DNA from: Parcubacteria bacterium C7867-006 | GTDB taxonomy: Bacteria; Patescibacteriota; Minisyncoccia; Phycocordibacterales; DATDWN01 | Direction of reading: 5' to 3' | Assembly: GCA_001189155.1 (NCBI GenBank) | Contig: LFCP01000001.1 | Span: 147,779-211,778, forward strand | Length of the DNA: 64,000 bases | Part shown: positions 3,335 through 63,661 of the stretch, in pieces | Position numbering within the stretch: the stretch's first letter is position 1 | Layout: the number at the start of each line of letters is the position of its first letter | The notes under the pieces: generated by a model | Seen by the model: only the letters and a program-made list of their open reading frames with translations | Database searches by the model: none | Told to the model about the DNA's origin: nothing | Position numbers and translations under genes: made by a program

Positions 3335-3366
3335 AAAAATCACCGATTTGTATCAGTGATTTTTTA
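3335..3366. terminator. Bidirectional intrinsic terminator hairpin
   Basis: aaaaaatcaccgat-ttgt-atcagtgatttttt: a stem flanked by an A-run and a T-run; lies downstream of the minus-strand tRNA-Gln. Confidence 0.5.
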
Positions 3367-3496
3367 TTCTGAATACTGCACTCAGCAGGTATGCCATTTT
3401 CGGAATAGATTCTCGTGTGGTTTATGCATACAAGTCCCGTCAGCTTTACTTCACTATAAAAGCGTTGCACTGACGCGACTCGAGCGGCGCACGAGC

Positions 3497-4541: not shown

Positions 4542-5413
4542 AGCCTAAAATCTATATACCAATCTTATTGATGACTTTGGTTGTTTTAAGTCTTTTTTCT
4601 TATGAATTTTTATACAAAAAAAATGAAGTAAGTGTTAGTCCGAGCACACCAGCTCTTGTTTTGAATACTGTTAAAGAAGAGCCTATAATTGGTCAAGATC
4701 TTTTGGGTAAAGCAGAGGTTAGTTTTGCTGGAGGAACGGATGTTAGGAATAAAAATATAGAATTAGGAATTGCTCGTATAAATGGAAAAGTATTGATGCC
4801 TGGTGAGGAATTTTCTTTTACAAAAACTATTGGTCCAGTTACAGAAGAAGATGGTTTCGGTGAAGCAAAAGTTTTTCTCAACGGTGAAGTTACAACTGGT
4901 GTGGGTGGTGGGCTCTGTCAGGTATCAACAACCCTGTTTCAGAGTGTTTTAAAGGCGGGTTTACCGGTAACGGAGAGATGGAATCATACATATTCTGTAG
5001 TGTTGTATGATGTTGGTTTAGACGCTACGTACTCAGATCCTGGCCCAGATTTTAAATTCAAAAATGATACGGCCAATCCTGTTGTTATAAAAGGTAAGAC
5101 TGAAGATCAAAAAGCTGTATTTGAAATATATGGTGTTAGTGATGGTCGTCAGGCTAGCACAACTGAACCTGATATTTCTCAGATTGTAGATTTTCCACCA
5201 ACAAAATATGTCGCAACAACTACAAGAGATAAAAGTTTGCCAGAATGTATAAATAGTCCACAGATAGGGTATACATCAAAAATTACATATGGTGTTTTGT
5301 ATCCAAATGGAACTACAACACAGCAAATATTTACTTCAACATATAAACCTTTACAGAGAGTTTGCTATGTTTATGGGACTAGTACCACAAATTTTAAAAA
5401 TTCCATAAGATAA
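4538..5413 (+). CDS. VanW-family protein
   Basis: N-terminal TM helix; conserved VanW core GGGLCQVSTTLFQSVLKAGLPVTERWNHTY. Confidence 0.7.
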   Translation: MKPKIYIPILLMTLVVLSLFSYEFLYKKNEVSVSPSTPALVLNTVKEEPIIGQDLLGKAEVSFAGGTDVRNKNIELGIARINGKVLMPGEEFSFTKTIGPVTEEDGFGEAKVFLNGEVTTGVGGGLCQVSTTLFQSVLKAGLPVTERWNHTYSVVLYDVGLDATYSDPGPDFKFKNDTANPVVIKGKTEDQKAVFEIYGVSDGRQASTTEPDISQIVDFPPTKYVATTTRDKSLPECINSPQIGYTSKITYGVLYPNGTTTQQIFTSTYKPLQRVCYVYGTSTTNFKNSIR

Positions 5414-5440
5414 ATTTATATATGTTAATATTTACCTAAT

Positions 5441-5989
5441 ATGAAAGAAAATTTTGACGCTAATAATTCTGAAACTGTTTATTCAAAAGAATCTGTAGAG
5501 AAGAAAGAAAGAGCTCCAGAGTTTAACTTTGAAAGTGGGGTAGAAGAATCTATTAATAGAATAGTTAGTATCCTGGAAAAACAACCTAAAGTTGTAGTTG
5601 CTTTTTCTGGCTCATCTTCAAATGTTGGAAAAACAACATTATCAAAACATATATCTCAAGGGTTGTATGATAGAGGTATACAGTCTAGATCTTATATGGG
5701 TGTAGAAGAGGTTCACGATAGAGGGCCTGAGCCGGGAGATTCTGTTTTTATATTTCAACAGATACATTTAGGAGTAGTTAACAGCAGTATAGTTGATAAA
5801 ATAAAAGATATTTATAATGAGGATGTTAGGGATGCTTTTAAAGAGAAAGGCCTTGATATTTCTGGTATAGATTTTTGGGTGGGTATTTACAGGCCAGACA
5901 AACCATTTGCAAGTGATGTTATTGCTGATTCTAATTCTGAACCTATAGCAGATATTATTATTAGGAATGACATGGCTGAAGATAAATAG
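5441..5989 (+). CDS. P-loop NTPase/kinase-like protein
   Basis: Walker A motif AFSGSSSNVGKTTLSK; 182 aa. Confidence 0.5.
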   Translation: MKENFDANNSETVYSKESVEKKERAPEFNFESGVEESINRIVSILEKQPKVVVAFSGSSSNVGKTTLSKHISQGLYDRGIQSRSYMGVEEVHDRGPEPGDSVFIFQQIHLGVVNSSIVDKIKDIYNEDVRDAFKEKGLDISGIDFWVGIYRPDKPFASDVIADSNSEPIADIIIRNDMAEDK

Positions 5990-6956: not shown

Positions 6957-7043
6957 ATTTGTTTTTGTTATTTGCTAATAAACCGACCTTTATCTATTGT
7001 TTACGACGTGGTAGTCTAGGTTTGATTACATATTTTTATTAAC

Positions 7044-7607
7044 ATGAATTTTACAATTGATAGTGCTATTGAGGCCTTGAACACTGGTGGAGTTGGTGTA
7101 TTTCCCACAGATACTCTTTACGGTCTGGTTGCTAGGGCATTGGATATTGATGCTGTAAATCGTGTTTATAAATTAAAGAATAGATCAGATGGTAAACCAT
7201 TCATTATACTTATTTCATCTATTGATGATTTATCAATATTAAAAATCTCTATTGATGAAAAAACAAAAACTTTTCTCTCTACTGTTTGGCCGGGGTTAGT
7301 TAGTGTGATTTTGCCTTGCGAGGATAACGGTCTCAGTTATTTGCATAGTGGTATGGATTTGGCCATAAGGTTGCCCAATAATGAAATTCTTATAAATTTA
7401 ATAAAAGAAACTGGCCCGATAGTTGCTCCATCTGCAAACCCTGAAGGACTAAAACCTGCATCAAATATTAATGAAGCAAAAGAATATTTTGGAGATAATG
7501 TTGAATTTTATGTGGACGGAGGTATTTTAGATGGGGAGCCTTCGACTCTACTATCAATAAAAGATGGCGAGATAAAAGTTTTAAGACAAGGAAGATTTAA
7601 AATTTAG
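7044..7607 (+). CDS. tsaC: L-threonylcarbamoyladenylate synthase (YrdC/Sua5 family)
   Basis: GGVGVFPTDTLYGLVARALDIDAVNRVYKLKNRSDGKPFIILISS. Confidence 0.8.
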   Translation: MNFTIDSAIEALNTGGVGVFPTDTLYGLVARALDIDAVNRVYKLKNRSDGKPFIILISSIDDLSILKISIDEKTKTFLSTVWPGLVSVILPCEDNGLSYLHSGMDLAIRLPNNEILINLIKETGPIVAPSANPEGLKPASNINEAKEYFGDNVEFYVDGGILDGEPSTLLSIKDGEIKVLRQGRFKI

Positions 7608-12299: not shown

Positions 12300-12350
12300 A
12301 TGTTTAGTTTAACAAATACTTTAGCTTTTCCATATAACAGAGTTAACAGA

Positions 12351-12380
12351 CTTGACGTTCTGGCTACAAAAGGTGTAGTA
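12351..12380 (+). promoter_or_regulatory. Sigma70-like promoter of GC-rich cassette A
   Basis: TTGACG (12351-56), an 18-nt spacer, then TAGTAT (12375-80). Confidence 0.5.
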
Positions 12381-12397
12381 TTTTACCCGGAGGCACG

Positions 12398-12617
12398 CAT
12401 GAGTACTGTGAAGAATATCTCTCACACACCAAACAAACACCAGGCTACCGCACAGCCCATTCGCCGAATCGTTTGTCCAGTCTGTCACATCAGCCAGCCG
12501 GACATTCGCCAGACGAAGTGTCAGAGCTGTGGTCGGTTGCTTCCGGCTCGGCCTGGCGTAGTGACTGCACCTGTTCCGTCCAAGCGGTGGTTCGGGGGGA
12601 TCGCTCCCTCCAGGTAG
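12398..12617 (+). CDS. Small zinc-ribbon protein (GC-rich cassette A)
   Basis: GGAGG (12388-92) lies 5 nt before the ATG. Product is MSTVKNISHTPNKHQATAQPIRRIVCPVCHISQPDIRQTKCQSCGRLLPARPG..., with a CPxC...CxxC zinc-ribbon motif. GC-rich codons sit inside an AT-rich genome. Confidence 0.55.
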
Positions 12618-12651
12618 ATATCCGCAAGACAGAATCCCACCTCGTGCAATA

Positions 12652-12728
12652 CCGCCATGGATCCCAGCCCATGGCAAAGCCCTCGTCGCTCGTCGTCGCT
12701 TGTCGTCGTCGTCCCCGTAGGGCTTTTT
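12652..12728 (+). terminator. Hairpins downstream of the cassette A gene
   Basis: gccatgg-atcccagc-ccatggc hairpin, then agccct...(CGT-rich loop)...agggct followed by ttttt. Confidence 0.4.
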
Positions 12729-12766
12729 CTATATTTGAAATTTTCTTTGTGCTATATTGATTCAGA

Positions 12767-13309
12767 ATGAAAGAATCTTTTATAGTTCAATTTTTTAAAA
12801 AGTGGAGACAAATAGGGGCCATAGCACCCAGTTCTATTTTTTTAGTTGAGGATATGCTTTCTGAGGTTGATTGGGATAGGGCATCAATAATTATTGAGTT
12901 GGGAGCAGGCAGTGGTACTTTTACAAAACAAATATTGAAAAAAATGAGACCAGAAGCAAAACTTTTTGTTTTTGAAATAGATCATGTTTTTTTAAAAAAA
13001 TTAAATAAAATTATTGATTCTAGAATAGTCATAGTCTCTGAATCGGCAGAAAACTTATCAAAGTACCTTGATGGTAAAAAAGCAGATTATGTTATATCTG
13101 GCATCCCTCTTTCAAATTTAGATAAACATGTAAAATCTGGCATTATTTATTCCGCTATGGAGAGTATGGTTTCTGGGGGTATATTTTTGCAGTTTCAGTA
13201 TTTCCCTGAATCACTAAATTTTCTAAAGAAGTATTTTGACGATGTTAAGCTTAAATTTACGTTCTTAAATACACCTCCAGCTTTTTATTACATTTGCCTA
13301 AAAAAGTAG
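12767..13309 (+). CDS. Class I SAM-dependent methyltransferase
   Basis: SAM motif I (IIIELGAGSGTFT). Confidence 0.65.
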   Translation: MKESFIVQFFKKWRQIGAIAPSSIFLVEDMLSEVDWDRASIIIELGAGSGTFTKQILKKMRPEAKLFVFEIDHVFLKKLNKIIDSRIVIVSESAENLSKYLDGKKADYVISGIPLSNLDKHVKSGIIYSAMESMVSGGIFLQFQYFPESLNFLKKYFDDVKLKFTFLNTPPAFYYICLKK

Positions 13310-21496: not shown

Positions 21497-22672
21497 CTAT
21501 CTTGTGTCTACCAAAGAAAGAGAATAGTGTGCCCCTAGTATCATAGTTGTTCCAATAAATATAAATAGGTATTGAAATGGAATGAACTGTAAAATAATTG
21601 TTGCAAGTATGGGTGCAACAATAAAAGAGATAGGTCTAGCTATTCTAAAAAAGCTGATTACGTCAGTTTTTTCCTTGTCTACTTGTTTAAAGAAATAACT
21701 TTCCACACTTACTTCAACAAAACTTGCACCAATTCTGGTTATAAATAGTATGGTTGCCCACATCCAGAATATTTGTGCTGTGATAAAGCTTATAAAAAGA
21801 GTAGCTAGACCCATTACAATAAAACCTATTGTGAGAAATTCTTTTTCACCATACTTATCATCAGATAATTCTCCTAATGGGACCTCAAAAAGAATAAAAG
21901 GTAGAAGCATTATGGTAAAAATTATTCCGATTTCCGCCCAAGAAAAACCAATAACAGTTTCAAGATAGATAGGAGTGTAGATTATCATAAAAGCATAAAA
22001 TAATTGGAGTAGGAATTGAGATATCAAAATGTTGTATAGATTTTTATTTTTTATGTATTCAGAAGCTGTTTCTTTAAGTCTTATATGATGTATTTCTGTT
22101 GATTTTATATCTCTGAATTTTTTTATCAGGAAATAAACTGGCAGTATCGATAAACATGAGATTAAGTAAACATTTGTAAAAATATGATCCATTATTATCC
22201 ATGATAGACAAAATGGGGCAATGACTATTGTTATATTTGTTAGTGTGAGATAAGTTGCTCTGATACTTCCAACTTTTGTTTTGTCTTCTTCTATGGATTC
22301 TATAAGGACATCCATATTGAATAGAATAAGAGATATTGTAACTGTGTGTATTATAAACCAAAGACTTACATAAAAAGCCGAGTCAGATAAAGCCAAACCA
22401 GCAGTTGATATTATTTCTATAATTAAAGATAGAATAATAAATTTATAAACGCCAATCTTTTCTAGTATTTTTGATGCGTTAATTAAGAGAATAGTGCTTC
22501 CTGCCGAACTTATTATATAAAGAGCAGATACTTGTGTTTCAGAGAAAAGAGTAGATAGAAAAGAAGAGTTAATGTAGATAATTAACGCATAGTGAAATGA
22601 GATAAAAACATTGGACAAGAATAGAGTATTTAACAGTTTTCCTTGCTTGAACGGAGAAAGTATTTTATCCAT
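21497..22672 (-). CDS. Polytopic membrane transporter (MFS-like, ~11-12 TM)
   Basis: 391 aa and highly hydrophobic; adjacent to the GH130 genes. Confidence 0.5.
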   Translation of the reverse strand: MDKILSPFKQGKLLNTLFLSNVFISFHYALIIYINSSFLSTLFSETQVSALYIISSAGSTILLINASKILEKIGVYKFIILSLIIEIISTAGLALSDSAFYVSLWFIIHTVTISLILFNMDVLIESIEEDKTKVGSIRATYLTLTNITIVIAPFCLSWIIMDHIFTNVYLISCLSILPVYFLIKKFRDIKSTEIHHIRLKETASEYIKNKNLYNILISQFLLQLFYAFMIIYTPIYLETVIGFSWAEIGIIFTIMLLPFILFEVPLGELSDDKYGEKEFLTIGFIVMGLATLFISFITAQIFWMWATILFITRIGASFVEVSVESYFFKQVDKEKTDVISFFRIARPISFIVAPILATIILQFIPFQYLFIFIGTTMILGAHYSLSLVDTR

Positions 22673-27344: not shown

Positions 27345-28211
27345 ATGCAAAAAACTTTTGCATTTTTAGCTCTATTTGTTTTTCCTATTTACCTTTCAGC
27401 CTTTACTGTTCCTAATAAACCAACTGGTTTTGTTCAGGACTATGCTGGAATTTTAACTGCACAGCAAGTTTCGGATCTTGAGGTAAAATTAGAAACTTTT
27501 GAGAGGAACACAACAAATGAAATCGCTGTTGTAACTATTCCATCACTTGATGGTGATATTATTGAAAATGTTGCACAAGATATTTTTACAAAGTGGGGAA
27601 TAGGTAAAAAGGGAAAAGACAATGGAGTATTACTCCTCATTTCTCTTTCAGATAGAAAAACTAGAATACATACAGGATATGGGGTTGAAGGAGATTTAAC
27701 TGATATCGGCACATCATATATACAGAGTGATGTTATAACGCCAGCGTTTAGAAATGGTGATTACTATCTAGGTATAAATGGTGCTATAGATAAAATGATA
27801 AAGGCTTTAGGTGGAAATAATATTGTTCCAGATAATTATTCACAAAAATCAAATGGTTTGCCTTGGGACTTGTTGTTCTTTGTATTTATTTTTGGGGTAC
27901 AACTTATTACAGCAATTTTAGCAAGATCGAAGTCGTGGTGGGGTGGTGGAGTTTTGGGTGGTGTTGTCGGGATGCTCCTGTGGCATTTTTTCATAGCATC
28001 TTTGATTGTTGCTATTCCCACAATAGTTGTTTTGGTTTTGTTCGGGCTATTTCTTGATTATATAGTTTCCAACTCATATAGTCGGGCAAGAGCTAGTGGA
28101 GTTTATCCATGGTGGATGAGAGGTGGAGGAGGTGGCTCTGGTGGCGGTGGAGGTTTCGGTGGATTCGGAGGCGGTTCGTCTGGAGGAGGAGGTAGTAGCG
28201 GTTCTTGGTAG
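27345..28211 (+). CDS. TPM-domain protein (YgcG-like) with Gly-rich C-terminus
   Basis: Signal peptide, VQDYAGILTAQQVSDLEVKLETFERNTTNEIAVVTIPSLDG, a C-terminal TM helix and a poly-Gly/Ser tail; the classic LemA partner. Confidence 0.7.
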   Translation: MQKTFAFLALFVFPIYLSAFTVPNKPTGFVQDYAGILTAQQVSDLEVKLETFERNTTNEIAVVTIPSLDGDIIENVAQDIFTKWGIGKKGKDNGVLLLISLSDRKTRIHTGYGVEGDLTDIGTSYIQSDVITPAFRNGDYYLGINGAIDKMIKALGGNNIVPDNYSQKSNGLPWDLLFFVFIFGVQLITAILARSKSWWGGGVLGGVVGMLLWHFFIASLIVAIPTIVVLVLFGLFLDYIVSNSYSRARASGVYPWWMRGGGGGSGGGGGFGGFGGGSSGGGGSSGSW

Positions 28212-28983: not shown

Positions 28984-29475
28984 ATGGAAAATTTAAGAAA
29001 TTCTACTCTCATATTTTTAGTAAATACAGATGGCAATAAAATTACTAAAGTTTGCCTAGCTATGAAAAAGCGAGGTTTCGGAGCTGGTAGATGGAATGGA
29101 GTTGGTGGAAAAGTTGAAAGCGGTGAGACCATAGAAGACGCAGCAAAAAGAGAAGCAAAAGAAGAGATAGGTGTAAATATAGAAATTATCAAAAAAGTTG
29201 GAGAGATATCTTTTTATTTTCCACACAAAACTGAATGGAATCAGCTGGTCAGTATATTTTTTTCAGACAAATGGATTGGAGAACCATCCGAGAGTGAAGA
29301 AATGAGACCAGAATGGTTTGAGATTGATAAAATTCCTTTTGATAAAATGTGGCCAGATGACAAGTTTTGGTTACCAATTGTTTTGGGTGGAAAGTTAATA
29401 AAAGGAAGTTTTACTTTTTTGGACGGTGATATAATAAAGGATGAAAAAGTGGAGATAGTTGATTCTTTAAACTAA
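28984..29475 (+). CDS. NUDIX hydrolase
   Basis: Nudix box GGKVESGETIEDAAKREAKEEIGV. Confidence 0.8.
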   Translation: MENLRNSTLIFLVNTDGNKITKVCLAMKKRGFGAGRWNGVGGKVESGETIEDAAKREAKEEIGVNIEIIKKVGEISFYFPHKTEWNQLVSIFFSDKWIGEPSESEEMRPEWFEIDKIPFDKMWPDDKFWLPIVLGGKLIKGSFTFLDGDIIKDEKVEIVDSLN

Positions 29476-30407
29476 TGTCTAATACTTCAAAAAATATAAT
29501 TAGTGCCCTCATTCTTCTCGGAGTGATTTTTTATTTTCGAACAACATTACAGAATTATTGGCGTTATCTAGAGAGAACATATTTCCCTTGTAAATCTCCA
29601 ATTAGTTACAGTATCGGAACATTTGATACAAGATTTGGAGTTTCAAAAGCTGATTTTCTTTCAGCTATGAAAGAAGCAGAGGCAATATGGGAAAAACCTA
29701 TTGGTAAGGATTTATTTTCTTATTCAACAGACGGAGCTTTAAAAGTAAATCTTATCTATGACACTCGTCAGGAGACAACAAAACAATTGCAGGTTATGGG
29801 TATAACATTGAAAAATGATAAAGCCACATATGATGAAGTAAAAGCAAAATACGAAACTGTTTTGGTCCAATACAATCAAGAAAAAGCAGAGTTTGAGTCT
29901 AGAGTTTCTGCTTTTGAAATACGTAAAACTACATATGAAACAGCGGTCGCACAAGCAAATAGAAGAGGTGGTGCTGATAAAACAACATATGCAAAACTGA
30001 CTGCTGAAAAAGAGTATCTGCAAAATGAAAGCGCCTCACTGGTTAATTTACAAAACCAGTTAAATAAGGATGCTAGTAATGTTAACTCTCTCGTTTCTGC
30101 ACTAAATGATTTAGCAAAAGCTCTAAATATAAATGTTAAAAATTACAATACAATAGGAGATAATCTTGGTGGTGAGTTTGACGAGGGTTTGTATAAAGTT
30201 GATGCCAATGGAGAGGAAATAGATATCTATCAGTTCGATAATAGAACAAAACTTATTAGAGTCTTGGCTCATGAGTTAGGTCACGCTTTGGGTTTGGATC
30301 ATAATGAGGATCCAAAAGCTATAATGTACAGATTAAACAACGGTGTTAATGAAAAGCTAACAAATACTGATTTGATTGAGCTGAAAAATCTGTGCGGAAT
30401 TAAATAG
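29475..30407 (+). CDS. Matrixin-like zinc metalloprotease (metzincin)
   Basis: HELGHALGLDHNEDPKAIMY (HExxHxxGxxH plus Met-turn), N-terminal TM helix, central coiled coil. Confidence 0.75.
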   Translation: MSNTSKNIISALILLGVIFYFRTTLQNYWRYLERTYFPCKSPISYSIGTFDTRFGVSKADFLSAMKEAEAIWEKPIGKDLFSYSTDGALKVNLIYDTRQETTKQLQVMGITLKNDKATYDEVKAKYETVLVQYNQEKAEFESRVSAFEIRKTTYETAVAQANRRGGADKTTYAKLTAEKEYLQNESASLVNLQNQLNKDASNVNSLVSALNDLAKALNINVKNYNTIGDNLGGEFDEGLYKVDANGEEIDIYQFDNRTKLIRVLAHELGHALGLDHNEDPKAIMYRLNNGVNEKLTNTDLIELKNLCGIK

Positions 30408-30415
30408 CTCAGATA

Positions 30416-30444
30416 TTTACTTGTATATTTTCTGATGCTAGTAT
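30416..30444 (+). promoter_or_regulatory. Sigma70-like promoter of GC-rich cassette B
   Basis: TTTACT, a 17-nt spacer, then TAGTAT. Confidence 0.4.
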
Positions 30445-30475
30445 CTTTTGGGACGTACAAACACATGGGGGGTTT

Positions 30476-30658
30476 ATGTTGTATTTGCGCGGGGTGTCTG
30501 GTCCGAGAAAGATACTCGCAACTCATCCTGAACTGAAGGAACTGCCGCCATTTGAGCGGACAGTCGCCATGATTAGGCTTCTCCGTCAGGAAGCTGAACG
30601 GCTCAAGTCGAAGAAGATCGAACAGTTCGATCGCGAAATTCCAGAATTGTTGTTCTGA
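30476..30658 (+). CDS. Small helical protein (GC-rich cassette B, 60 aa)
   Basis: GGGGGG precedes the ATG. Product is MLYLRGVSGPRKILATHPELKELPPFERTVAMIRLLRQEAERLKSKKIEQFDREIPELLF. GC-rich with its own terminator. Confidence 0.45.
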   Translation: MLYLRGVSGPRKILATHPELKELPPFERTVAMIRLLRQEAERLKSKKIEQFDREIPELLF

Positions 30659-30668
30659 ACACTCCACA

Positions 30669-30701
30669 CAGTCGGGCTTCGGCCCGACTGTTCCCGTTTT
30701 T
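30669..30701 (+). terminator. Intrinsic terminator of cassette B
   Basis: cagtcgggc-ttcg-gcccgactg (9-bp stem, UUCG loop) then ttcccgttttt. Confidence 0.7.
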
Positions 30702-30702
30702 G

Positions 30703-30773
30703 TGCGGGATACGAGAATCGAACTCGTGTCTCATCCTTGGGAAGGACGTATCATACCACTAAACTAATCCCGC
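30703..30773 (-). tRNA. tRNA-Gly (anticodon CCC), CCA not encoded
   Basis: Reverse complement is GCGGGATTAGTTTAGTGGTATGATACGTCCTTCCCAAGGATGAGACACGAGTTCGATTCTCGTATCCCGC; close to E. coli tRNA-Gly; anticodon loop TTCCCAA. Confidence 0.8.
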
Positions 30774-30844
30774 TTATCCAGGATTATATCACCGCATTCA
30801 TATTCTACAATTTTAAACTTTTATATTTTAAAAATATTGTTATA

Positions 30845-31531
30845 ATGCTTTTTATGACAAAAAATATTTTAATTAGTCTCGTCTTGGTTTGTGGAATATC
30901 TGTCTGTGGCTATTATTTATTCTCAGACAAAAAATCTGAAGTTGCAGGTTCTCTTGTTTCAAGTATCCCTGCTGTTGATAATACTACTCAGGTAGCGACA
31001 ACAGCTGTTTCTCCTGTTACTTCCTTAACGGAGTCGGCTCAAATTAAAAGTGATGATAAAAAAACACATATGATTACAATAGATACAAATTATGGAAAGA
31101 TAGTTTTTGAAACTTACGATGCAGATGCTCCAAATACCGTAAAAAACTTTGTAACTTTAGCAGACAAAGGATTTTATAACGGCCTTACATTCCATCGAGT
31201 AATAAAAGGCTTTATGATTCAGGGAGGGGATCCAAATGGAAATGGAACTGGAGGTCCTGGTTATCAGTTTGCTGATGAACTTGACCCAAATACACCATCA
31301 TATAAAGCTGGTTATAAAAAGGGAGTTGTTGCTATGGCTAATGCCGGCCCAAATACAAACGGAAGTCAGTTTTTTATAATGACAGCAGACTATCCGCTAC
31401 CTAACAACTACACTATTTTTGGGAAAGTTGTTTCAGGTCAGGATGTTGTAGATAAGATCGCAAGTGTCCAAACTGGGGCTAATGACAAGCCTGCTTCTCC
31501 TGTTGTAATGAAAACTGTTACAGCAAATTAA
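30845..31531 (+). CDS. Cyclophilin-type peptidyl-prolyl cis-trans isomerase (secreted/membrane-anchored)
   Basis: FHRVIKGFMIQGGDPNGNGTGGPGY...SQFFIM. Start moved to the ATG at 30845, because the longer track ORF would overlap the tRNA. Confidence 0.8.
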   Translation: MLFMTKNILISLVLVCGISVCGYYLFSDKKSEVAGSLVSSIPAVDNTTQVATTAVSPVTSLTESAQIKSDDKKTHMITIDTNYGKIVFETYDADAPNTVKNFVTLADKGFYNGLTFHRVIKGFMIQGGDPNGNGTGGPGYQFADELDPNTPSYKAGYKKGVVAMANAGPNTNGSQFFIMTADYPLPNNYTIFGKVVSGQDVVDKIASVQTGANDKPASPVVMKTVTAN

Positions 31532-35660: not shown

Positions 35661-36668
35661 ATGACACTAATAGGAAAACCATCACCGACGGATATGAATT
35701 TGCATCCTCTAAATTATAAGTGGGCATATGATTTATATAATCAAGCAGTGAGAAATACTTGGTTTCCACATGAAATTGCTTTAAAGGAGGATTTGGAGGA
35801 TTTTGAAAAAATGACAGAGGATGAGAGGCATGCAGTAAAGTTTTTGATGGCCTTTTTTAATCCTGCAGAGCTCATAGTTAACAGGTCTATTGCTTTGGGT
35901 ATATATCCGTATTTGAAATCTCCAGAGTGTCATTTGTATCTAGCGAAACAAATGTGGGAAGAAGCAAACCACTGTGTGTCTTTTGAGTATGTTTTGGAAA
36001 CCTTTCCTTTCGATAGAGAGTCTGTTTTTAATACTCATCTAGAAGTTCCATCTATGATTGCGAAAGAGGCCTTCATAAACAAATACCTTTCTAGAATGAC
36101 AGATGACAAGCTTGATATTGATACAGTTGAGGGAAAGAAAGATTTTATTAGAAATTTAGTTGCTACAAATATTGTGATGGAGGGAGTTTGGTTCTATTCC
36201 GGTTTTATGGTTGCTCTTTCTTTTCGACAAAGAAATCAACTTAGAAACTTTGGTTCAATGATAAACTGGGTACTACGAGATGAAAGTTTACATCTAAAGT
36301 TTGGTATCAATCTCGTTCATAACATTTTGGAAGAAAATCCAGAACTACTAACAGAGGAGTTTGCTGCTGAAATCAGAAATATTGTCATAGAAGGTGTTGA
36401 TCTAGAGGTTGCTTATAATAAAGATCTATTCCCAAATGGAATACTTGGTCTAAATGCGGATTATGTTAACCAGTACGTACAATATGTCGCAGACAGAAGA
36501 CTTCAGGAGCTTGGAATGCCTAAATATTATAACGCAACAAACCCAGCAAAGTGGATGAGTACTGCGACAGATGTGTTTGAACTAGTAAACTTCTTTGAAT
36601 CACAGAACACTAGCTACGAGGTTGATTCTCATTCAAGTGGAACAAAAAAAGAAAATCCTGCCGAGTAG
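35661..36668 (+). CDS. nrdB: Ribonucleotide reductase small subunit (R2, ferritin-like)
   Basis: EEANH iron-ligand motif, EGVWFYSGF, 335 aa. Confidence 0.8.
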   Translation: MTLIGKPSPTDMNLHPLNYKWAYDLYNQAVRNTWFPHEIALKEDLEDFEKMTEDERHAVKFLMAFFNPAELIVNRSIALGIYPYLKSPECHLYLAKQMWEEANHCVSFEYVLETFPFDRESVFNTHLEVPSMIAKEAFINKYLSRMTDDKLDIDTVEGKKDFIRNLVATNIVMEGVWFYSGFMVALSFRQRNQLRNFGSMINWVLRDESLHLKFGINLVHNILEENPELLTEEFAAEIRNIVIEGVDLEVAYNKDLFPNGILGLNADYVNQYVQYVADRRLQELGMPKYYNATNPAKWMSTATDVFELVNFFESQNTSYEVDSHSSGTKKENPAE

Positions 36669-36722
36669 TTTTTACAGTTTCCCATTTTAGGAGTAAATTT
36701 GATATAATTTACCTATTATTTC

Positions 36723-37781
36723 TTGAACATTTTTAATATGTCATTTTTTAGCAAAAACAAAAAGATAAAAGTTGCGATAAACGGTTTTGGTAGAATCGGA
36801 AGACAATTCCTAAAAGAGAGTTGGGATAGAGAGGAACTAGAAGTTGTTGCTGTAAATGATTTAGGAAATGTTGATAATATGGCCTATCTTTTAAAGTACG
36901 ACACCGTGTATAAGACTTGGAAGCATGATGTATCTGTAAAGGATGGAAATCTGGTTATAGATGGACGAGTGGTAAAATTTGTTTCTGAAAAAGAACCAAC
37001 AAAACTTCCATGGAAGGATTTGGATATTGATGTGGTTGTGGAGTCCACAGGACTTTTCACTTCATATGACAAAGCATCTGTGCATCTACAAGCTGGAGCA
37101 AAAAAGGTTGTGATTTCTGCACCCGCAAAAGATGGTGATGATGCTGGCGTTAAAGGTGAAACTATTTTAATGGGTGTAAACGAAGAAAAGTTTGGAACAT
37201 GTGATGTAACTTCAAATGCATCTTGTACAACAAATGCAGCTTCACCACTCATTGCTATTATGGACGAGAACTTTGGTATAGAAAAAGCAATTCTTAACAC
37301 TGTGCATGGATATACAGCTAGTCAGGCCCTGGTTGACGGTCCATCAAAGAAAGATTTGAGAGAGGGAAGAGCAGCGGCACAAAATATAGTTCCATCATCA
37401 ACAGGTGCTGCTATAGCTGTTACAAAGGCATTTACAAAACTAGAGGGGTTATTTGATGGTATTTCTATCAGAGTACCAGTTCCAGCTGGGTCTATTGTTG
37501 ATGTAACTTTTATTTCAAAGAAAGAAACCACAGCAGAGGAGGTCAACGATGTGCTTAGAAAGGCTGCAGCCAACGACAGATGGAAAAATATTTTCTCTGC
37601 AACAGATGAGGAACTAGTTTCATCAGATATTTTGGGTAGTCATTATGGTTCTATTGCTGATCTCAAAATGACACGTGTTGTTGGTGGAAACCTGGTTAAA
37701 GTAATGGCTTGGTACGATAATGAGGCGGGATATACTCACACTCTCATAGACCATGTTATAAAAACGGCTAACGCCCAATAA
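36723..37781 (+). CDS. gap: Glyceraldehyde-3-phosphate dehydrogenase
   Basis: KVAINGFGRIGR Rossmann motif, SCTTNA active site. Confidence 0.9.
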   Translation: MNIFNMSFFSKNKKIKVAINGFGRIGRQFLKESWDREELEVVAVNDLGNVDNMAYLLKYDTVYKTWKHDVSVKDGNLVIDGRVVKFVSEKEPTKLPWKDLDIDVVVESTGLFTSYDKASVHLQAGAKKVVISAPAKDGDDAGVKGETILMGVNEEKFGTCDVTSNASCTTNAASPLIAIMDENFGIEKAILNTVHGYTASQALVDGPSKKDLREGRAAAQNIVPSSTGAAIAVTKAFTKLEGLFDGISIRVPVPAGSIVDVTFISKKETTAEEVNDVLRKAAANDRWKNIFSATDEELVSSDILGSHYGSIADLKMTRVVGGNLVKVMAWYDNEAGYTHTLIDHVIKTANAQ

Positions 37782-40958: not shown

Positions 40959-40984
40959 ATTTTTTAAAGGTTGGTTTTTGTAAT

Positions 40985-41013
40985 GTGAAAAGCGCCGAGT
41001 TCCGGCGCTTCAC
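40985..41013. terminator. Bidirectional hairpin between tkt and cassette C
   Basis: gtgaaaagcgccg-agtt-ccggcgcttcac. Confidence 0.5.
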
Positions 41014-41023
41014 CTCCTTTGGT

Positions 41024-41416
41024 TTAGAAATGAACGATGTTGATGTGGTTGTCGGTGAGAGTTGGGATTGCGACGTCGAGGATGGCCGGCATTGCCAGTT
41101 TGTCCATCTCGGACATCTTGATGAGTATATCTGACACACGGATCTCTCCGTTGGTTGGCAGTCCGCAGAGTGTTGAAAATTCTTTCGCTCCCCAGACTTC
41201 GAATCCAACGTAGTTTTTCTTTCCGTCTTCTTCGTGGTTCCGCCGAAGAAGAGACAGATGAGTTCCTTTGATGAACTCCTCTGTTGTAGAGCAGTCCTCA
41301 ACAATGACCGAAATCATGTCGAGTTCGTCGCTGTATGTAATACAGGGACGAAACGCCAGTCTCCCCGTGAGCCAACCCGAGAATATTTCATCTAAGGTTT
41401 GATTTTCCACATTCAC
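41024..41416 (-). CDS. Hypothetical 128-130 aa protein (GC-rich cassette C)
   Basis: Minus-strand promoter TTGAGT (complement of 41452-57), 17-nt spacer, TACAAT (complement of 41429-34); AGAGG SD; GTG start (41416, or 41410 with better SD spacing). GC-rich relative to the flanks; product MNVENQTLDEIFSGWLTGRLAFRPCITYSDELDMISVIVEDCSTTEEF... has no recognisable family. Confidence 0.5.
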   Translation of the reverse strand: MNVENQTLDEIFSGWLTGRLAFRPCITYSDELDMISVIVEDCSTTEEFIKGTHLSLLRRNHEEDGKKNYVGFEVWGAKEFSTLCGLPTNGEIRVSDILIKMSEMDKLAMPAILDVAIPTLTDNHINIVHF

Positions 41417-41467
41417 CTCTAGATTTTTATTGTAACAGATGGATCGTAGTAACTCAATGGATTTTTA

Positions 41468-42485: not shown

Positions 42486-43370
42486 GTGTGCTACAATATT
42501 GCAATGAAAACATTAAAACAATCAGTACTCGAGGCACGAGAAAAAAAGGTAGCAATCGGCCATTTTAATATTTCTAACTTGGAGGCTTTTTGGGGTATTT
42601 TTAGAGCAGCACAGTCACTAGATGTCCCTGTTATTATTGGAGTTTCAGAAGGGGAAAGGGATTTTGTTGGTGTAAAACAAGCAGTAGCTTTGGTAAAAAG
42701 TATTCGTGAGGAATACGACTATCCTATTTATTTAAATGCTGATCACACTTACTCATTTGAGAGAGTAAAGGAGGCAATAGATGCTGGTTTTGATTCTGTT
42801 ATTATAGACGGAGCAAAACTTTCTTTTGAGGAGAATGTAAAACTGACAAAACAGTGTGTCGAGTATGCCCGCTCTAGTGGTAGAGAAGTTTTGGTTGAAG
42901 GAGAGCTTGGATATATTGGTCAGTCATCAAAAATTTTAGATGAGATACCAGAGGGGGTAGTTTTAGACGAGAGTTCTCTTACTGATCCAGTAAAGGCCAA
43001 AGAATTTGTTGAGTTAACTGGTGTAGATATGTTGGCTCCAGCTATAGGAAACTTTCACGGTATGCTCCGGGGTGGTGTAGATCCAAAATTAAATATAGAA
43101 AGAGTAAAGCAAATCGCTGATTCGACTAGTATTCCTCTAGTTTTACACGGAGGTTCTGGCAATTCTGAAGACGATTTTAAACAGTCCATAGCAAACGGTA
43201 TAGCTATAGTACACATAAATACAGAAATACGTGTAGCTTATAAGCAAGGACTCCAAATAGGGCTTTCCGAGAACCCAGATGAGGTTGCTCCATATAAATT
43301 TCTAAAGCAGTCAGTAAAAGCGGTTCGAGATGTTGTTACAGACAAGTTAAGATTTTTTAATAACTTATAA
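42486..43370 (+). CDS. fba: Class II fructose/ketose-bisphosphate aldolase
   Basis: AIGHFNISNLE, LNADHTYSFE and VLHGGSG motifs; true start may be the internal ATG (MKTLKQ). Confidence 0.8.
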   Translation: MCYNIAMKTLKQSVLEAREKKVAIGHFNISNLEAFWGIFRAAQSLDVPVIIGVSEGERDFVGVKQAVALVKSIREEYDYPIYLNADHTYSFERVKEAIDAGFDSVIIDGAKLSFEENVKLTKQCVEYARSSGREVLVEGELGYIGQSSKILDEIPEGVVLDESSLTDPVKAKEFVELTGVDMLAPAIGNFHGMLRGGVDPKLNIERVKQIADSTSIPLVLHGGSGNSEDDFKQSIANGIAIVHINTEIRVAYKQGLQIGLSENPDEVAPYKFLKQSVKAVRDVVTDKLRFFNNL

Positions 43371-43372
43371 TT

Positions 43373-43400
43373 TTGTTTATTAAGTGTTTTATTGTATAAA
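43373..43400 (+). promoter_or_regulatory. Promoter of GC-rich cassette D
   Basis: TTGTTT, a 16-nt spacer, then TATAAA with an adjacent TG. Confidence 0.4.
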
Positions 43401-43418
43401 TGTTGTCGGAGGCTGCGC

Positions 43419-43637
43419 ATGATGGATGATGATATTCCACCGGTCACCCTTGATGAGGCTTTCGAGATCTGTCAGCGAGCGTTCGCTGGTGGTCACGTTG
43501 ACCATGAAAGGGTCCTAGACATCAAGGCCTACTGTTACGTTGATGACAACTTCGCAATCGCTCTGTATGAGAGGTTGCATCTGTCTGGGCATTTCGTTAT
43601 GTCAGCTCTGGACCGTGCCGTCTATGAAAGTCTATAG
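43419..43637 (+). CDS. Small acidic protein (GC-rich cassette D, 72 aa)
   Basis: GGAGG (43408-12) lies 6 nt before the ATG. Product is MMDDDIPPVTLDEAFEICQRAFAGGHVDHERVLDIKAYCYVDDNFAIALYERLHLSGHFVMSALDRAVYESL. Confidence 0.5.
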   Translation: MMDDDIPPVTLDEAFEICQRAFAGGHVDHERVLDIKAYCYVDDNFAIALYERLHLSGHFVMSALDRAVYESL

Positions 43638-43669
43638 ACGGCAACGGATAACAACATCTCGTCCGCACG

Positions 43670-43693
43670 AAAACTCGTCGCGGGCGAGTTTTC
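43670..43693. terminator. Bidirectional hairpin terminator of cassette D
   Basis: aaaactcgtcgcgggcgagtttt. Confidence 0.55.
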
Positions 43694-47296: not shown

Positions 47297-47340
47297 TTAA
47301 AAAACCTCTAGAAATAGAGTTTTTTTACTATATAAAATAC

Positions 47341-47369
47341 TTGACAAATATATTATATAGTAGTATAAT
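47341..47369 (+). promoter_or_regulatory. Consensus-perfect sigma70 promoter of GC-rich cassette E
   Basis: TTGACA (47341-46), a 17-nt spacer, then TATAAT (47364-69). Confidence 0.65.
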
Positions 47370-47406
47370 TATTAAAGATCTAACAATTTCCTTGAAAGGG
47401 GAAACA

Positions 47407-47796
47407 ATGCCCTATACGAAGACCTTCGCCGTTGTTACCAGCCTTCTCGCTTTTCAGATTGCCATGATGTGGTTCGCAGTTGGTTCCACTTCTGGCGGTA
47501 ACGAGTTCAAGACTGTGACAACCCACAGCTACGACGTTCCGTTCGAAAGGTACTGCGGTTATCTGGAAGAAGTTGCCCATGGAGTCATCCAGTTCGACGG
47601 CAAGGACCCAGTGGACATCGCGTATCTTTTCTTCCGCTCATCGGTTGGGAAGCCTAGCATCCCGCGTATCATCTACGGGGACACAGAGAGACTCAGTAAG
47701 ATTGAGTCGGGTCGTCATTACGACATCGGTGTCCGTCAGTACGGTGGTGGACTAAACTTCCCACGCCGTCTTGATGTAGTCGAGTCGTGCAAGTAG
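47407..47796 (+). CDS. Secreted/membrane-anchored hypothetical protein (GC-rich cassette E, 129 aa)
   Basis: AAGGGG SD lies 5 nt before the ATG. N-terminal signal/TM helix (TKTFAVVTSLLAFQIAMMWFAVGS), GC-rich codons. Confidence 0.55.
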   Translation: MPYTKTFAVVTSLLAFQIAMMWFAVGSTSGGNEFKTVTTHSYDVPFERYCGYLEEVAHGVIQFDGKDPVDIAYLFFRSSVGKPSIPRIIYGDTERLSKIESGRHYDIGVRQYGGGLNFPRRLDVVESCK

Positions 47797-47811
47797 TAGA
47801 TCTGAGCACAA

Positions 47812-47860
47812 GTCGGTGGGTTGATCCCACCGACAGGACCACACATTTGTGTGGTTTTTT
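47812..47860 (+). terminator. Tandem hairpin terminator of cassette E
   Basis: gtcggtggg-ttgat-cccaccgac, then ccacac-attt-gtgtgg followed by tttttt. Confidence 0.7.
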
Positions 47861-47935
47861 CAAATTCAAATATGTCAAAAAACCTAAGCTCTGACTATTG
47901 CACAACATTTATGTTTCTGCTACTATATCCACCAC

Positions 47936-49729: not shown

Positions 49730-49733
49730 CACT

Positions 49734-49757
49734 AAAATCCCCGCAAGGGGATTTTTG
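49734..49757 (+). terminator. Intrinsic terminator after tRNA-Thr
   Basis: aaaatccccgcaaggggattttt. Confidence 0.7.
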
Positions 49758-49902
49758 CGTAAGACACTTGTTAGGCGAGAACTAGATGGGGGGTCGGAAA
49801 AGAAGGGTCTTTCCCATGTCGGAAGGTAGTGAGAGATAGTGCAATAGGTGGTTTAGTTGGAATCTACCTAGGTTTCAAAATCGGAGAGTAGCTAGTGGCT
49901 AG

Positions 49903-59333: not shown

Positions 59334-59404
59334 CTAGTAGAAAATTGAATTGTATTGACGTTTACTACTTATTATGTGAGAGTTATTTATGGAGGACCAG
59401 AAAG

Positions 59405-59608
59405 ATGAAGACTCTGAATCTCAGCCAGACTGGTCGTGCTATGGTGACGACGGCGTTGATGTACTTTCTCTTCATCGCTGTCGCGATCACACTACTCCTC
59501 AGTATCGGGACGTTGGGGTGGTACCTGTTTCTGGCCGTGGTTATCGCTTTCGCGGCCTTGAGGGCCTACAGCGACTGGGACAGGAGGAACTGGAGGGGGT
59601 TTTTCTAA
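59405..59608 (+). CDS. Small two-TM membrane protein (GC-rich cassette F, 67 aa)
   Basis: GGAGG (59391-95) lies 9 nt before the ATG. Product is MKTLNLSQTGRAMVTTALMYFLFIAVAITLLLSIGTLGWYLFLAVVIAFAALRAYSDWDRRNWRGFF. An upstream TTGACG (59355-60) may be its -35. Confidence 0.5.
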   Translation: MKTLNLSQTGRAMVTTALMYFLFIAVAITLLLSIGTLGWYLFLAVVIAFAALRAYSDWDRRNWRGFF

Positions 59609-59618
59609 TCCTTCTCCA

Positions 59619-59660
59619 TAGGGCTACCCGCGATTTCGTCGCTGGTAGCCCTTCAGCTTT
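59619..59660 (+). terminator. Intrinsic terminator of cassette F
   Basis: agggctaccc-gcgatttcgtcgc-tggtagccct followed by tcagctttt. Confidence 0.6.
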
Positions 59661-59835: not shown

Positions 59836-62800
59836 CTATTCCAACAATTTTACTTTATCAACCAAAATACTTTTTTCTCCATTTCTTAGAGAAAAAGTGC
59901 CTTTTATAACCACACAGCTTTCTGGTATTAATATATCTTGAAACTCTTCAAATATTTTTGGAAACGCAACTCCTTCAATTGTGTCAGTTAGATCTGATAT
60001 TTTTAAGAAAACCATTTTGTCTCCCTTTTTTGTGACGACAGGTTTTACCTCATCTATTATTCCACCAAAAACTATTGGCTGTTTTTCTTTTCCAGTTTCT
60101 TTTAATTTTTTAATATTATTTTCTCTACCTTCTAGTTTTTCTCGGAAAGATTCAAGTGGGTGTCCAGAAATATAGAGTCCAAGAAGTTCTTTTTCCCAAA
60201 GTAGTTTATCTGCAGAATTGCCGTGAGATGCTTTTTCTAAATCAATTTCTGTGACTTCTCCACTATTTATCATTCCACCGAAAAGAGAGTCTTGATCAGA
60301 TTCTTTTGCTCTTTCTTCTTTGTTAAAAGCCAACAGTCTATCTAGATTGTGAAGTAGAGTAAATCTGTATTGATCTTTGTCATCAGTATCTTTTGCTAGA
60401 GAGTCTAACGCCCCTGTTTTTATGAGGGATTCCATTGATTTTTTATTTAGGTTTTTGTCTTTTATGCGACTTAGGAAATCAGAAAGAGATTTGAATGGTC
60501 CATTTGCCTTTCTTTCGTCTATGATTGATGTGGCTATTCCTTCACCAAAATTTTTTATTGTAGAAAGTCCAAAACGGATAGTATCTATCTCCCCAGGATT
60601 TTTCGCCTTGTTTACTCCAAACCCTTCAAAAGAAAAGTTAACGTCTGGAGGAAGAACAGGTATGTTCATATGTTTACACTCACCGATTATTTCGGCAATC
60701 ATATCTGTGTCGCCAGATTCTGCTGTAAGAACAGCTGACATATATATAGCAGGGAAGTTGGCTTTCATATATGCGGTTTGATACGCGACACGTCCATAAC
60801 TCGCAGCGTGAGCTTTGTTGAAACCGTAACCCTGAAAAGGTTCAAACAAGAGCCATAGCTCTTCCGCTTTTTTCTCAGTCATTCCACCAAACTTTTGACA
60901 ACCCTCAACGAACTTCACATGTTGCTTCTTCATTTCCTCTGGGATTTTCTTTCCAACAGCTTTTCGGAATTTATCCACTTCACCCCAGTCGTAACCAGCT
61001 ATTTCAATGGCGGTATAGAGTAGGTCGTCCTGGTAAACAAGCACTCCAAAAGTTCTATCCAAAAAGTTTTTCATTTTTGGGTGTAGATATGTCACAGGTT
61101 TTTTGCCGTGCTTTCGCGCGATGTACTCGTTTATGTTATCCATCGGACCCGGTCGGTAAAGCGCCACCATCACGTTTATGTCGTGGATAGTTGTTGGCTT
61201 GAGTTCCTTCAGGGCCCGAGTCATTCCATCTCCATTTAGTTGGAAAAGTCCAATAGTTTCTCCTCGAGCCAGCATTTCAAAAGTTTTTTTATCATCTACT
61301 GGAACTGTATCCATATCAACATCTATTCCTTCTACTTTTTTTGTAATTTTTACAGCATCAGCCAATATTGATAGGTTTCTGATTCCAAGGAAGTCGAATT
61401 TTAGTAGCCCTACTCCGTCTTCACCAACAGCATGCATATCGTATTGAGTAATGATTTTGTTATCTCCTTTTGTATCGTACTGTAGTGGTACGTAGTCGGT
61501 AAGTGGAGTAGGTGAGATAACAACGCCAGCAGCGTGCACGGAGATATGGCGGGCACAACCTTCGATTTTTTTAGCCATATCAATTATTTTTTTTACGTCT
61601 TCATCGTCCGTATACATTTTTTTGAGTTCTGGATTTTCTTTTAAAGCTCTTTCGATTGTCATAGGGAATCCTTGTGCCCCCATTGGAATTGCCTTTGCAA
61701 TAGAGTCTCCAAGGCTGTATGGAAAACCAAGTGCGCGAGTTACATCACGAACAGAACCACGAGCAGCCATGGTACCGAACGTACCTATTTGAGCTACCTT
61801 ATCAATCCCATATTTTCCACGAGCATAGTCTATTACCTCGTCACGTCTGTTATCAGCAAAATCCATATCGATATCAGGAGCAGATGGTCTAGATGGATTG
61901 AGAAATCGCTCGAAAGGCAAATAGTATTCAATAGGATCTACATTTGTAATTCTAGTTAGATATGTTGTAAGGGAGCCTGCAACTGAACCTCGGATGTTTG
62001 TTAGTATTCCATGATCGTGGGCATAGTGCAGAAGATCGGACACAACGAGGAAATATGGAGCATAACCTTTATCTCTAATAACTTTTAATTCGTATTCTAA
62101 CCTCTCTATATATTCTGGAGTTTGTTTTAGATTTCTTTTTTCAAAACCTTCATACGCAATTTTTTTGAGTTCATCATCGTAAGACAAACCACTTTCAACA
62201 ATATAGTTTGGTAGGAACCATTTTCCAATAGATATTTCTAGATTACACCTATCAGCTATTTTTACTGTATTTTCTAGAGCTTCGGGTGTATCTTTGAAAA
62301 TTTTTTCAGCTTGTTTTTGAGTTATGAAAGAAAAGTCTTCATCACTTTCTTCTATTTTGTCATCATGTTGTGACTGAATAGAAAGTAGAGTTTGTCTGGC
62401 TATGCGGTCTTCTGAGCTTAGATAATAAACATCTTGAGCACCAACAATAGGTGTATTTGTATTTTTTGCAAATTGTATTATTTTTTTTGTATTTTCTTCA
62501 GTACCTTTTATTTCTGGATGGTGAGTTATTTCAAAATAAAGGTTTGGACCATCTTCGGTATCAGGAAAAGTTTTTTTATACCAAGACAACCTTTCATCTG
62601 CCTGTTCTGTATTTGAAAGTTGAAGAGATTTCGGTATGTCGCCACTCAAAGAAGGTATTATAGCAATAAGTCCCTCGTTGTATTTTTCTAAAAGTTCTCG
62701 GTCAATACGAGGTTTGTAGTAGAAACCTTCAAGATGGGCAAGAGTTACTAGCTTAATTAGATTTTTATACCCCGTATCATTTTTTGCTAGTAAGATTAGT

Positions 62801-63148: not shown

Positions 63149-63173
63149 CAAAAAAGATCATTTGCGGGGTGCT

Positions 63174-63347
63174 ATGGGAGAAATCGTTCACGAAGTCCGT
63201 TGGCAAGTTCAGAACAACAGAAAGAATCTTCTGGAGTTCGGTGCAGTAATTGTGGTAATCCTTTTCACTGTTGCCGTGATTCTAGCTCCAGTTTTTGAGT
63301 TTGCGATAGGACTCGCAGCTTATATGGAAAGGAGGTTCTGGGGGTGA
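63174..63347 (+). CDS. Small membrane protein G1 (GC-rich cassette G)
   Basis: GGGG lies before the ATG at 63174 (the track uses a TTG at 63162). Product is MGEIVHEVRWQVQNNRKNLLEFGAVIVVILFTVAVILAPVFEFAIGLAAYMERRFWG. Confidence 0.5.
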   Translation: MGEIVHEVRWQVQNNRKNLLEFGAVIVVILFTVAVILAPVFEFAIGLAAYMERRFWG

Positions 63348-63592: not shown

Positions 63593-63607
63593 GTTACCAA
63601 GTCGTTC

Positions 63608-63644
63608 AAGGGGTCACCGTGCTGAGCACAGTGACCCCTTTTAG
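63608..63644 (+). terminator. Strong intrinsic terminator of cassette G
   Basis: aaggggtcaccgtg-ctgag-cacagtgacccctt followed by ttagt. Confidence 0.7.
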
Positions 63645-63661
63645 TATGTTAAAATCTTTGT

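Follow-up and report, generated by a model that had tools for sequence, protein, structure and literature searches.

Phage genomes reportedly carry morons, which are autonomous units of promoter, gene and terminator inserted between phage genes. We describe here a unit of comparable build, cassette B, in Parcubacteria bacterium C7867-006 (contig LFCP01000001.1, positions 147,779 to 211,778). This whole stretch of DNA is referred to as the window; it is 64,000 nt long and has an overall GC content of 35.8%. Cassette B occupies a gap bounded by genes for an M10 metallopeptidase (29475-30407) and a cyclophilin (30857-31531). Like a moron, it is accessory and consists of a single small gene with its own predicted promoter and hairpin terminator, its base composition is distinct from that of its surroundings, and it is present in some close relatives and absent from others. 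Unlike a moron, it lies between chromosomal housekeeping genes of a bacterium of the Candidate Phyla Radiation (CPR) and not in a prophage, and it is led by a Shine-Dalgarno (SD) sequence in a host most of whose genes look leaderless. A phage context was not found either, since the encoded protein had no significant match among PHROGs (best E = 0.087) and no relative in the viral contigs of IMG/VR. The one match in INPHARED, a mycobacteriophage protein labelled helix-turn-helix (HTH), had E = 0.8, was not confirmed by BLASTP and has no Pfam domain. We rejected a phage origin, and also a plasmid origin, for which PLSDB gave no match. Judged by this comparison, cassette B in its build most resembles a phage moron.

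On balance, we think it probable that cassette B is a genuine, self-contained and fast-evolving accessory gene for a small protein, of atypical composition and located in a variable gap. The unit was likely already present in the ancestor shared with a related genome, L002 (CAZSFU010000004.1), and its contact with the adjacent tRNA-Gly gene would come from local rearrangement. The boundaries of the GC-rich island are sharp. Positions 30450-30701 have 51.6% GC compared to 33.4% in the M10 gene and 37.0% in the cyclophilin gene, and the GC content at third codon positions (GC3) is 0.56 in the open reading frame (ORF) of the cassette, ORF B, and 0.22-0.23 in the two flanking genes. The predicted parts follow in this order: extended -10 promoter, leader of 24 nt containing the GGGGGG SD motif, ORF of 60 codons and terminator with a UUCG hairpin (Table 1). 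Transcription from this putative promoter is predicted to start at approximately 30451, and initiation of translation would depend on the SD motif. The hairpin, ACAGTCGGGC-TTCG-GCCCGACTGT at 30668-30691, begins 9 nt past the stop codon of ORF B and has a perfect 10-bp stem. It was detected in a terminator scan and folds at -19.8 kcal/mol (z = -5.5). The tRNA-Gly gene that converges on ORF B has a putative promoter of its own, ending 9 nt ahead of the mature tRNA 5' end. The hairpin stands between these two genes, and it would end the cassette B transcript and part it from the tRNA gene. The minus-strand version of the hairpin folds equally well (-19.9 kcal/mol) and has no U-tract, so read-through from the tRNA-Gly gene could run antisense to B. 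An initial annotation of this DNA had noted the ORF, the UUCG-loop terminator and the tRNA-Gly gene, and all of these were recovered by ORF calls, the terminator scan, ARAGORN and Rfam. As it had also reported, the tRNA 3' end lies 1-2 nt from the T-run ending at 30701. A short alternative ORF of 33 aa (30435-30536, with the sequence MGGLCCICAGC in it), read in another frame, extends over part of the leader and into the start of ORF B and is probably incidental.

Table 1. Coordinates of cassette B and its neighbors, of the other cassettes in the window, and contents of the M10-cyclophilin gap in the window and in related genomes
Feature	Position	Strand	Description
Putative cassette B promoter	30416-30444	+	-35 TTTACT (30416-30421), 17-nt spacer ending in TGC (extended -10), -10 TAGTAT (30439-30444); read from sequence
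SD-like GGGGGG	30467-30472	+	3 nt ahead of the ATG of ORF B
ORF B	30476-30658	+	60 aa; predicted helical and cytoplasmic; free of Cys and of transmembrane segments; called as a gene on a JGI contig
Hairpin, intrinsic-terminator-like	30668-30701	+	10 bp with C(UUCG)G loop (30668-30691), then TCCCG and T5 (30697-30701)
tRNA-Gly(CCC)	30703-30773	-	Intact; convergent with ORF B; ARAGORN; Rfam 61.9 bits; 3' end at 30702/30703
Putative tRNA-Gly promoter	30783-30810	-	TTGTAG (30810-30805), 16-nt spacer ending in TGA, TATAAT (30788-30783); read from sequence
Segment lacking in the empty site of L003	30432-30809		Cassette B from the -10 box on, tRNA-Gly and tRNA promoter; ATTTT at either side
Antisense ORF	30299-30667	-	122 aa; judged spurious; overlaps the 3' end of the M10 gene
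Cassette A	12399-12617		Unit 12330-12740; 72-aa zinc-ribbon-like protein
Cassette C	41024-41416	-	Unit 40968-41420; 130-aa protein
Cassette D	43419-43637		Unit 43350-43690; 72-aa protein
Cassette E	47407-47796		Unit 47330-47870; 129-aa protein with N-terminal hydrophobic segment
Cassette F	59405-59608		Unit 59340-59660; small membrane protein
Cassette G	63344-63592		Unit 63170-63650; small membrane protein; two-gene unit, upstream partner ORF of 57 aa (63174-63347), also a small membrane protein
Gap in window			Cassette B (+), then tRNA-Gly (-) with a private promoter stretch of 38 nt
Gap in L002			M10 80% identical (aa) to window; cassette B', then a 1331-aa gene, then cyclophilin; tRNA-Gly absent
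Gap in L003			M10 71% identical (aa) to window; empty, about 58 nt from M10 stop to cyclophilin promoter
Gap in L004			M10 71% identical (aa) to window; tRNA-Gly(CCC) on the plus strand, 4 nt past the M10 stop; cassette absent

We compared the gap with that of relatives retrieved via the M10 protein, all of which are Paceibacteria or Parcubacteria-type metagenome-assembled genomes. The closest are L002, L003 (CAZTQY010000003.1) and L004 (CAZKGG010000061.1). The content of the gap is different in all four related genomes, the window included. Thus, the M10-cyclophilin gap is a variable, rearrangement-prone spot. Cassette B is lacking in two of the three closest relatives, L003 and L004, and we regard it as an orphan accessory gene at an intergenic site of variable content. 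This agrees with the initial annotation in that the unit is compositionally foreign and not universal. In L002 the corresponding cassette, B', has 59% GC, an ORF of 76 aa (6994-7224) and a 12-bp hairpin; the 1331-aa gene that follows it has a host-like GC content of 39%. The tRNA-Gly of L004 is 97.4% identical to that of the window over 78 nt and has the opposite orientation relative to the flanking genes, and the 38-nt promoter stretch of the window has no counterpart in L003 or L004. The tRNA is inverted in L004 and absent from the gap in L002 and L003, showing that its position varies independently of the cassette. The favored history would have the tRNA come into contact with the cassette through local rearrangement of this kind and not through integration at an att site. 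The 5-nt ATTTT repeat flanking the segment missing from L003 carries no weight in AT-rich DNA. We also considered two other marks of insertion and rejected both. A flank repeat of 13 nt occurs in tandem even in L003, whose site is empty. The cassette B promoter, as a possible duplicate of the cyclophilin promoter, can be aligned with it by MAFFT, yet many other promoters of the window are just as similar to it, and the cyclophilin promoter is not in the top five of 51. Elsewhere near this locus, the order of tRNA-Ser and the NUDIX gene is swapped in L002 relative to the window, and L002 has two tandem c-di-GMP-II riboswitch aptamers (4644-4727 and 4769-4854; 61 and 58 bits) at the place taken in the window by the 3' end of a gene for a GGDEF-domain protein.

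The relationship between B and B' carries the argument for a common origin. By blastn, homology between the window and L002 extends from the M10 gene through the promoter up to 30448 with 75% identity. The L002 promoter reads TTTGCT-17-TAGTAT, ATGCTAGTAT is identical in the two genomes and so is GGGGGG-N3-ATG. In both lineages a frame is open from the SD-adjacent ATG to just ahead of the hairpin, and we estimate the chance of two such open frames at about 0.06 x 0.08 from the stop-codon frequency at the GC content of each ORF. At the base of their stems the two hairpins agree (CAG[T/C]CGG...CCG[A/G]CTGTT) apart from one compensatory pair. The best protein alignment covers 37 codons with nine identical residues and contains L-x-P-F-x-R and R-x-(I/V)-x-E-L motifs at similar spacing. 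When guided by codons, this alignment has 48% nucleotide identity over the 37 codons, a value as high as which occurs in 1.25% of codon shuffles. These features suggest that B and B' are probably orthologous. Since the leader, an open frame and a high GC content persisted while the proteins became dissimilar, protein evolution would have been very fast. The unit was thus probably present in the common ancestor with the L002 genome, retaining its ORF and its high GC content as the protein sequence changed.

Evidence that ORF B encodes a protein comes from several of its properties. It starts right after the SD motif and fills the transcript, its GC content at the three codon positions (0.57/0.36/0.56) follows a coding-like pattern with foreign codon usage, its layout is kept in L002 and it is called as a gene on a public contig. 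By contrast, the antisense ORF shows a flat pattern (0.41/0.38/0.47), matches no family and is uncalled on the public contig. The GC-rich cassette of L002 likewise bears comparable antisense ORFs. The antisense ORF therefore looks like a by-product of GC-rich sequence, much as the initial annotation had held it to be probably an artefact.

Protein B is an orphan. It was found solely on the JGI metagenome contig 3300001199|J055_10000324, and both a word-indexed search of 5.8 billion protein clusters and an exhaustive HMMER scan of 1.84 billion representatives returned only the protein itself. It had no significant match in Pfam (best E = 0.11) and none in NCBIfam or in the defense and anti-defense families of PADLOC. 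AlphaFold2 without an alignment predicted helices at residues 10-16, 18-22 and 25-54 with moderate confidence (mean predicted local distance difference test score, 73), in line with the helical 60-aa product that had been proposed for this ORF. A Foldseek search of the PDB with this model found no fold match (best E = 7.2). The product would be a small, basic-leaning, cytoplasmic helical protein with a 30-residue amphipathic helix that most likely binds another macromolecule. Its fast divergence, weak sequence constraint and patchy distribution suggest, at low confidence, an accessory, strain-specific and possibly conflict-type role as a binder. A role as an immunity protein or inhibitor of the upstream M10 peptidase was considered and rejected, because M10 is 71-80% conserved and the small gene is absent or unalignable in relatives.

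Several observations weigh against the reading of cassette B as an old, fast-evolving protein gene. Its promoter matches only 8 of 12 positions of the sigma-70 consensus, which places it below the listing level of the consensus promoter scan. The U-tract of the terminator is interrupted, with the T-run beginning 5 nt past the stem. Closed ORFs of at least 60 codons occur in 6% of transcript shuffles, so the length of ORF B is by itself weak evidence of coding. BLASTP of B against B' gave no alignment, and their Smith-Waterman score was equalled by 6.7% of shuffles and is not significant at the protein level. The two may therefore be products of replacement and not orthologues. Lastly, if the unit is both old and weakly constrained, then the persistence of 52-59% GC in genomes of 36-39% GC has no established explanation.

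A rival reading takes the gap to be a hot spot for cassette replacement. In that case B and B' would be unrelated genes, each brought in separately to a place downstream of a promoter and leader that were already there, making the site an expression slot for foreign segments of ORF plus terminator. In addition to the failure of BLASTP to align them, B and B' differ in length (60 and 76 aa) and in the tops of their hairpins, both are far above host GC as expected of recent arrivals, and no two of the four relatives have the same content in the gap. A further locus fits this picture. In L003, a GC-rich ORF (12700-12927; SD GGAGGG) directly follows a -10 box that appears to match the -10 box upstream of the GAPDH gene in the window (36668-36738), where the window has no cassette; the locus ends ahead of the 3' end of that cassette. 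However, no known mechanism swaps an ORF yet spares its leader, SD and start codon, and we saw no recombinase or attC-like site. The weak codon-level similarity and the shared stem base with its compensatory change favor common descent, and neither B nor B' has a donor-side homologue among the 5.8 billion protein clusters. We regard replacement as rather unlikely. The arrangement it assumes is reminiscent of integron cassettes, which cassette B resembles as a short, strain-variable, single-ORF unit with a 3' hairpin-forming sequence; a resident upstream promoter would apply only under replacement. It differs in its 3' element, a perfect 24-nt hairpin followed by a T-run; this is a terminator and not an attC site. 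No RYYYAAC/GTTRRRY boundary motifs (R''/R' core) were seen on reading the cassette B sequence. No IntI or cassette array was found; the cassettes in the window are solitary and scattered, each with an apparent promoter of its own.

In another reading, cassette B would not be a protein gene at all but a non-coding RNA or a functionless insert, with the 60-codon ORF a by-product of stop-poor, GC-rich sequence. The 122-codon antisense ORF illustrates, along with the shuffles, how easily ORFs arise here, protein B lacks homologues, and the cassette B transcript folds slightly better than shuffles (z = -2.2). But most of this folding signal comes from the terminator hairpin, and our search for a known structured RNA at 30300-30850 led us to reject that candidate. 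The tRNA alone reaches the Rfam gathering score there, and the matches with E up to 10 were confined to the hairpin or had E > 0.09. The frame also begins immediately after the SD and ends 9 nt ahead of the hairpin, codon-position GC is coding-like, L002 has the same layout with an open frame of 76 codons, and conserved proteins are the products of other cassettes that are built alike. That cassette B is no protein gene is in our view distinctly unlikely. Cassette B fits no described protein or RNA family, and in this it is similar to ORFans and small genes formed de novo. Its protein lacks homologues and is short, simple and helical, and GC-rich DNA keeps ORFs open on both strands. It differs from them by its complete and well-placed expression signals and by belonging to a recurring class, at least one family of which (E) is conserved across genomes.

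The initial annotation took the position of cassette B next to a tRNA gene as support for acquisition by site-specific insertion. In this scenario, a small element that integrated into the 3' end of tRNA-Gly left the cassette abutting the tRNA. As in islands that target tRNA genes, cassette B has a foreign composition and abuts the 3' end of an intact tRNA, which faces the cassette. Its T-run overlaps a CAAA(A/T)A trailer that also follows tRNA-Gly in L004, placing the junction right at the tRNA trailer. The duplicated tRNA-Gly fragment that the initial annotation suggested looking for was not found beyond the level of chance. The 21-nt 3' end of the tRNA is unique in the window when up to three mismatches are allowed, and 12-mers with two mismatches are about as frequent as chance predicts. 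Locally, the closest resemblance is that of TGTGCGGAAT at 30391-30400, a 9/10-nt direct match just left of the cassette; a match of this quality occurs in 6% of shuffles, and it sits within the conserved C-terminal LCGIK* codons of the M10 gene. We also rejected a 26-nt tRNA-like stretch inside ORF B (30504-30529). It is 73% identical to the T-arm region, 3.6% of shuffles match or beat it, and it does not lie where an att site would be expected.

Unlike tRNA-targeted islands, cassette B has no integrase and no attL/attR repeat, its insert measures only 250-380 bp, and its L002 counterpart has no tRNA. The 250-bp unit itself encodes no recombination function, and no integrase or recombinase gene was found within approximately 10 kb. 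Upstream, this interval contains genes for GH130, MFS, RNase J, SBP_bac_5, SecG, LemA, TPM, GGDEF, NUDIX and M10 proteins; downstream, it contains genes for cyclophilin, RRM and DUF192 proteins, the large and small subunits of ribonucleotide reductase, GAPDH, RpiB, Rpe and transketolase. No recombinase family is among the 25 listed of the 92 families in the window, which encodes core functions including DnaE, ribonucleotide reductase, GyrB, ribosomal protein S2, PheRS and pentose-phosphate enzymes. Nor do L002, L003 and L004 show the pattern expected of such an island, in which relatives lacking the insert have the same tRNA uninterrupted at this site and the insert travels with the tRNA; L003 has neither of the two. 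Since there is no att repeat and no integrase nearby, and since L002 has a cassette without the tRNA and L004 an inverted tRNA without the cassette, the idea that the cassette entered site-specifically at the 3' end of tRNA-Gly lacks support, and we consider an integration remnant highly improbable. Of the two observations that, taken together, the initial annotation named as refuting this idea, the lack of an att-like repeat was borne out, and the presence of the cassette in all relatives was not.

A homologue of cassette E in L032 is likewise convergent with a tRNA, tRNA-Tyr, which would fit integration. By a rough estimate, however, the two of about ten cassettes that adjoin tRNA genes are no enrichment. 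The statement that cassette B is the only cassette of the window to adjoin a tRNA is correct for GC-rich cassettes that bear an ORF, but GC-richer stretches with no convincing ORF adjoin two other tRNAs. One of these (3367-3496) lies between the 3' end of tRNA-Gln and a bidirectional hairpin at 3336-3366. The other (49731-49860) comes after the terminator of tRNA-Thr and shares ATGGGGGG with the leader of cassette B.

Cassette B by itself is one more orphan accessory gene, and the contrast between SD-led genes and host genes is more useful. We screened the window for ORFs of at least 40 codons with at least 45% GC and an SD-like motif. This yielded seven units, A-G, together with two antisense ORFs inside unit A and one host gene's 3' end, which is rich in glycine codons (27954-28211). 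All seven cassettes combine a promoter-like sequence and a strong SD with a GC-rich hairpin that is followed by a T-run, and their GC3 is 0.52-0.76. Every SD-led ORF in the window is GC-rich (GC3 0.45-0.76) compared to a GC3 of 0.18-0.33 in the 48 host ORFs of at least 150 aa. An SD-like motif precedes just 2 of these 48 host ORFs, leaving 46 without one. A TAnnnT box ends 4-12 nt before the ATG in 33 of the 48, whereas it does so at 19% of random positions. Thus, about two thirds of the host genes look leaderless in organization; examples are the genes starting at 3676, 8596, 28238 and 28984 and, on the minus strand, those at 21497-22672 and 59836-63069. The same split between SD-led, GC-rich genes and leaderless-type genes is also seen in relatives.

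None of the cassette proteins matched a family in Pfam, NCBIfam, PHROGs or PADLOC. Cassette E has five homologues with 44-60% identity on other Parcubacteria-like contigs (L032 4001-4516; L034 2192-2599; L033, L035 and L036), showing that the class includes real, conserved proteins. Two distinct contexts were read (L032/L033 and L034-L036), and in both the homologue once more forms a GC-rich island and has a terminator hairpin of its own; its GC3 is 0.58-0.72 and the rest of the locus has 41-47% GC. Two viral matches to cassette E arose from the search pattern and were discarded as artefacts. High GC3 was kept after divergence both between B and B' and across genomes in the 44-60% identical E family. 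Drawing on this window and a handful of loci, we tentatively propose, as a possibility that is still more doubtful than probable, an undescribed class of Parcubacteria genes. These would be single-gene, GC-rich, SD-led units with their own promoter and hairpin terminator, scattered over intergenic gaps of genomes that are otherwise AT-rich and for the most part leaderless and SD-less, and the units would vary between close relatives. A literature search for GC-rich, SD-led cassettes in CPR/Patescibacteria found nothing relevant.

If the class is real, the persistence of its GC3 would imply a dedicated source or mechanism, such as a GC-richer mobile gene pool or the insertion of transcript-shaped units. 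Alternatively, selection would maintain the high GC content and the SD dependence of these mRNAs, which would then form a translation class under regulation of its own. Should the contrast hold across the genome and the clade, it would offer a simple sequence signature of a distinct CPR gene pool with fast turnover. It also raises the question of how foreign-looking, SD-led genes are translated in an organism that does not normally use the SD.

GC-rich stretches were also seen beside M10 homologues at other loci. A stretch of about 230 nt right after the M10 homologue of a more distant relative (L017 6875-7100, the same as L028 459-702) contains no clear SD-led ORF, matches nothing in Rfam and is followed by an HTH-like ORF of 90 aa. 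In L014, a cassette with up to 65% GC (5140-5900) lies just upstream of the M10 homologue. It encodes a predicted lipoprotein of 216 aa; its promoter reads TTGACA-17-TATAGT, its SD is AAGGAG and it has a hairpin terminator.

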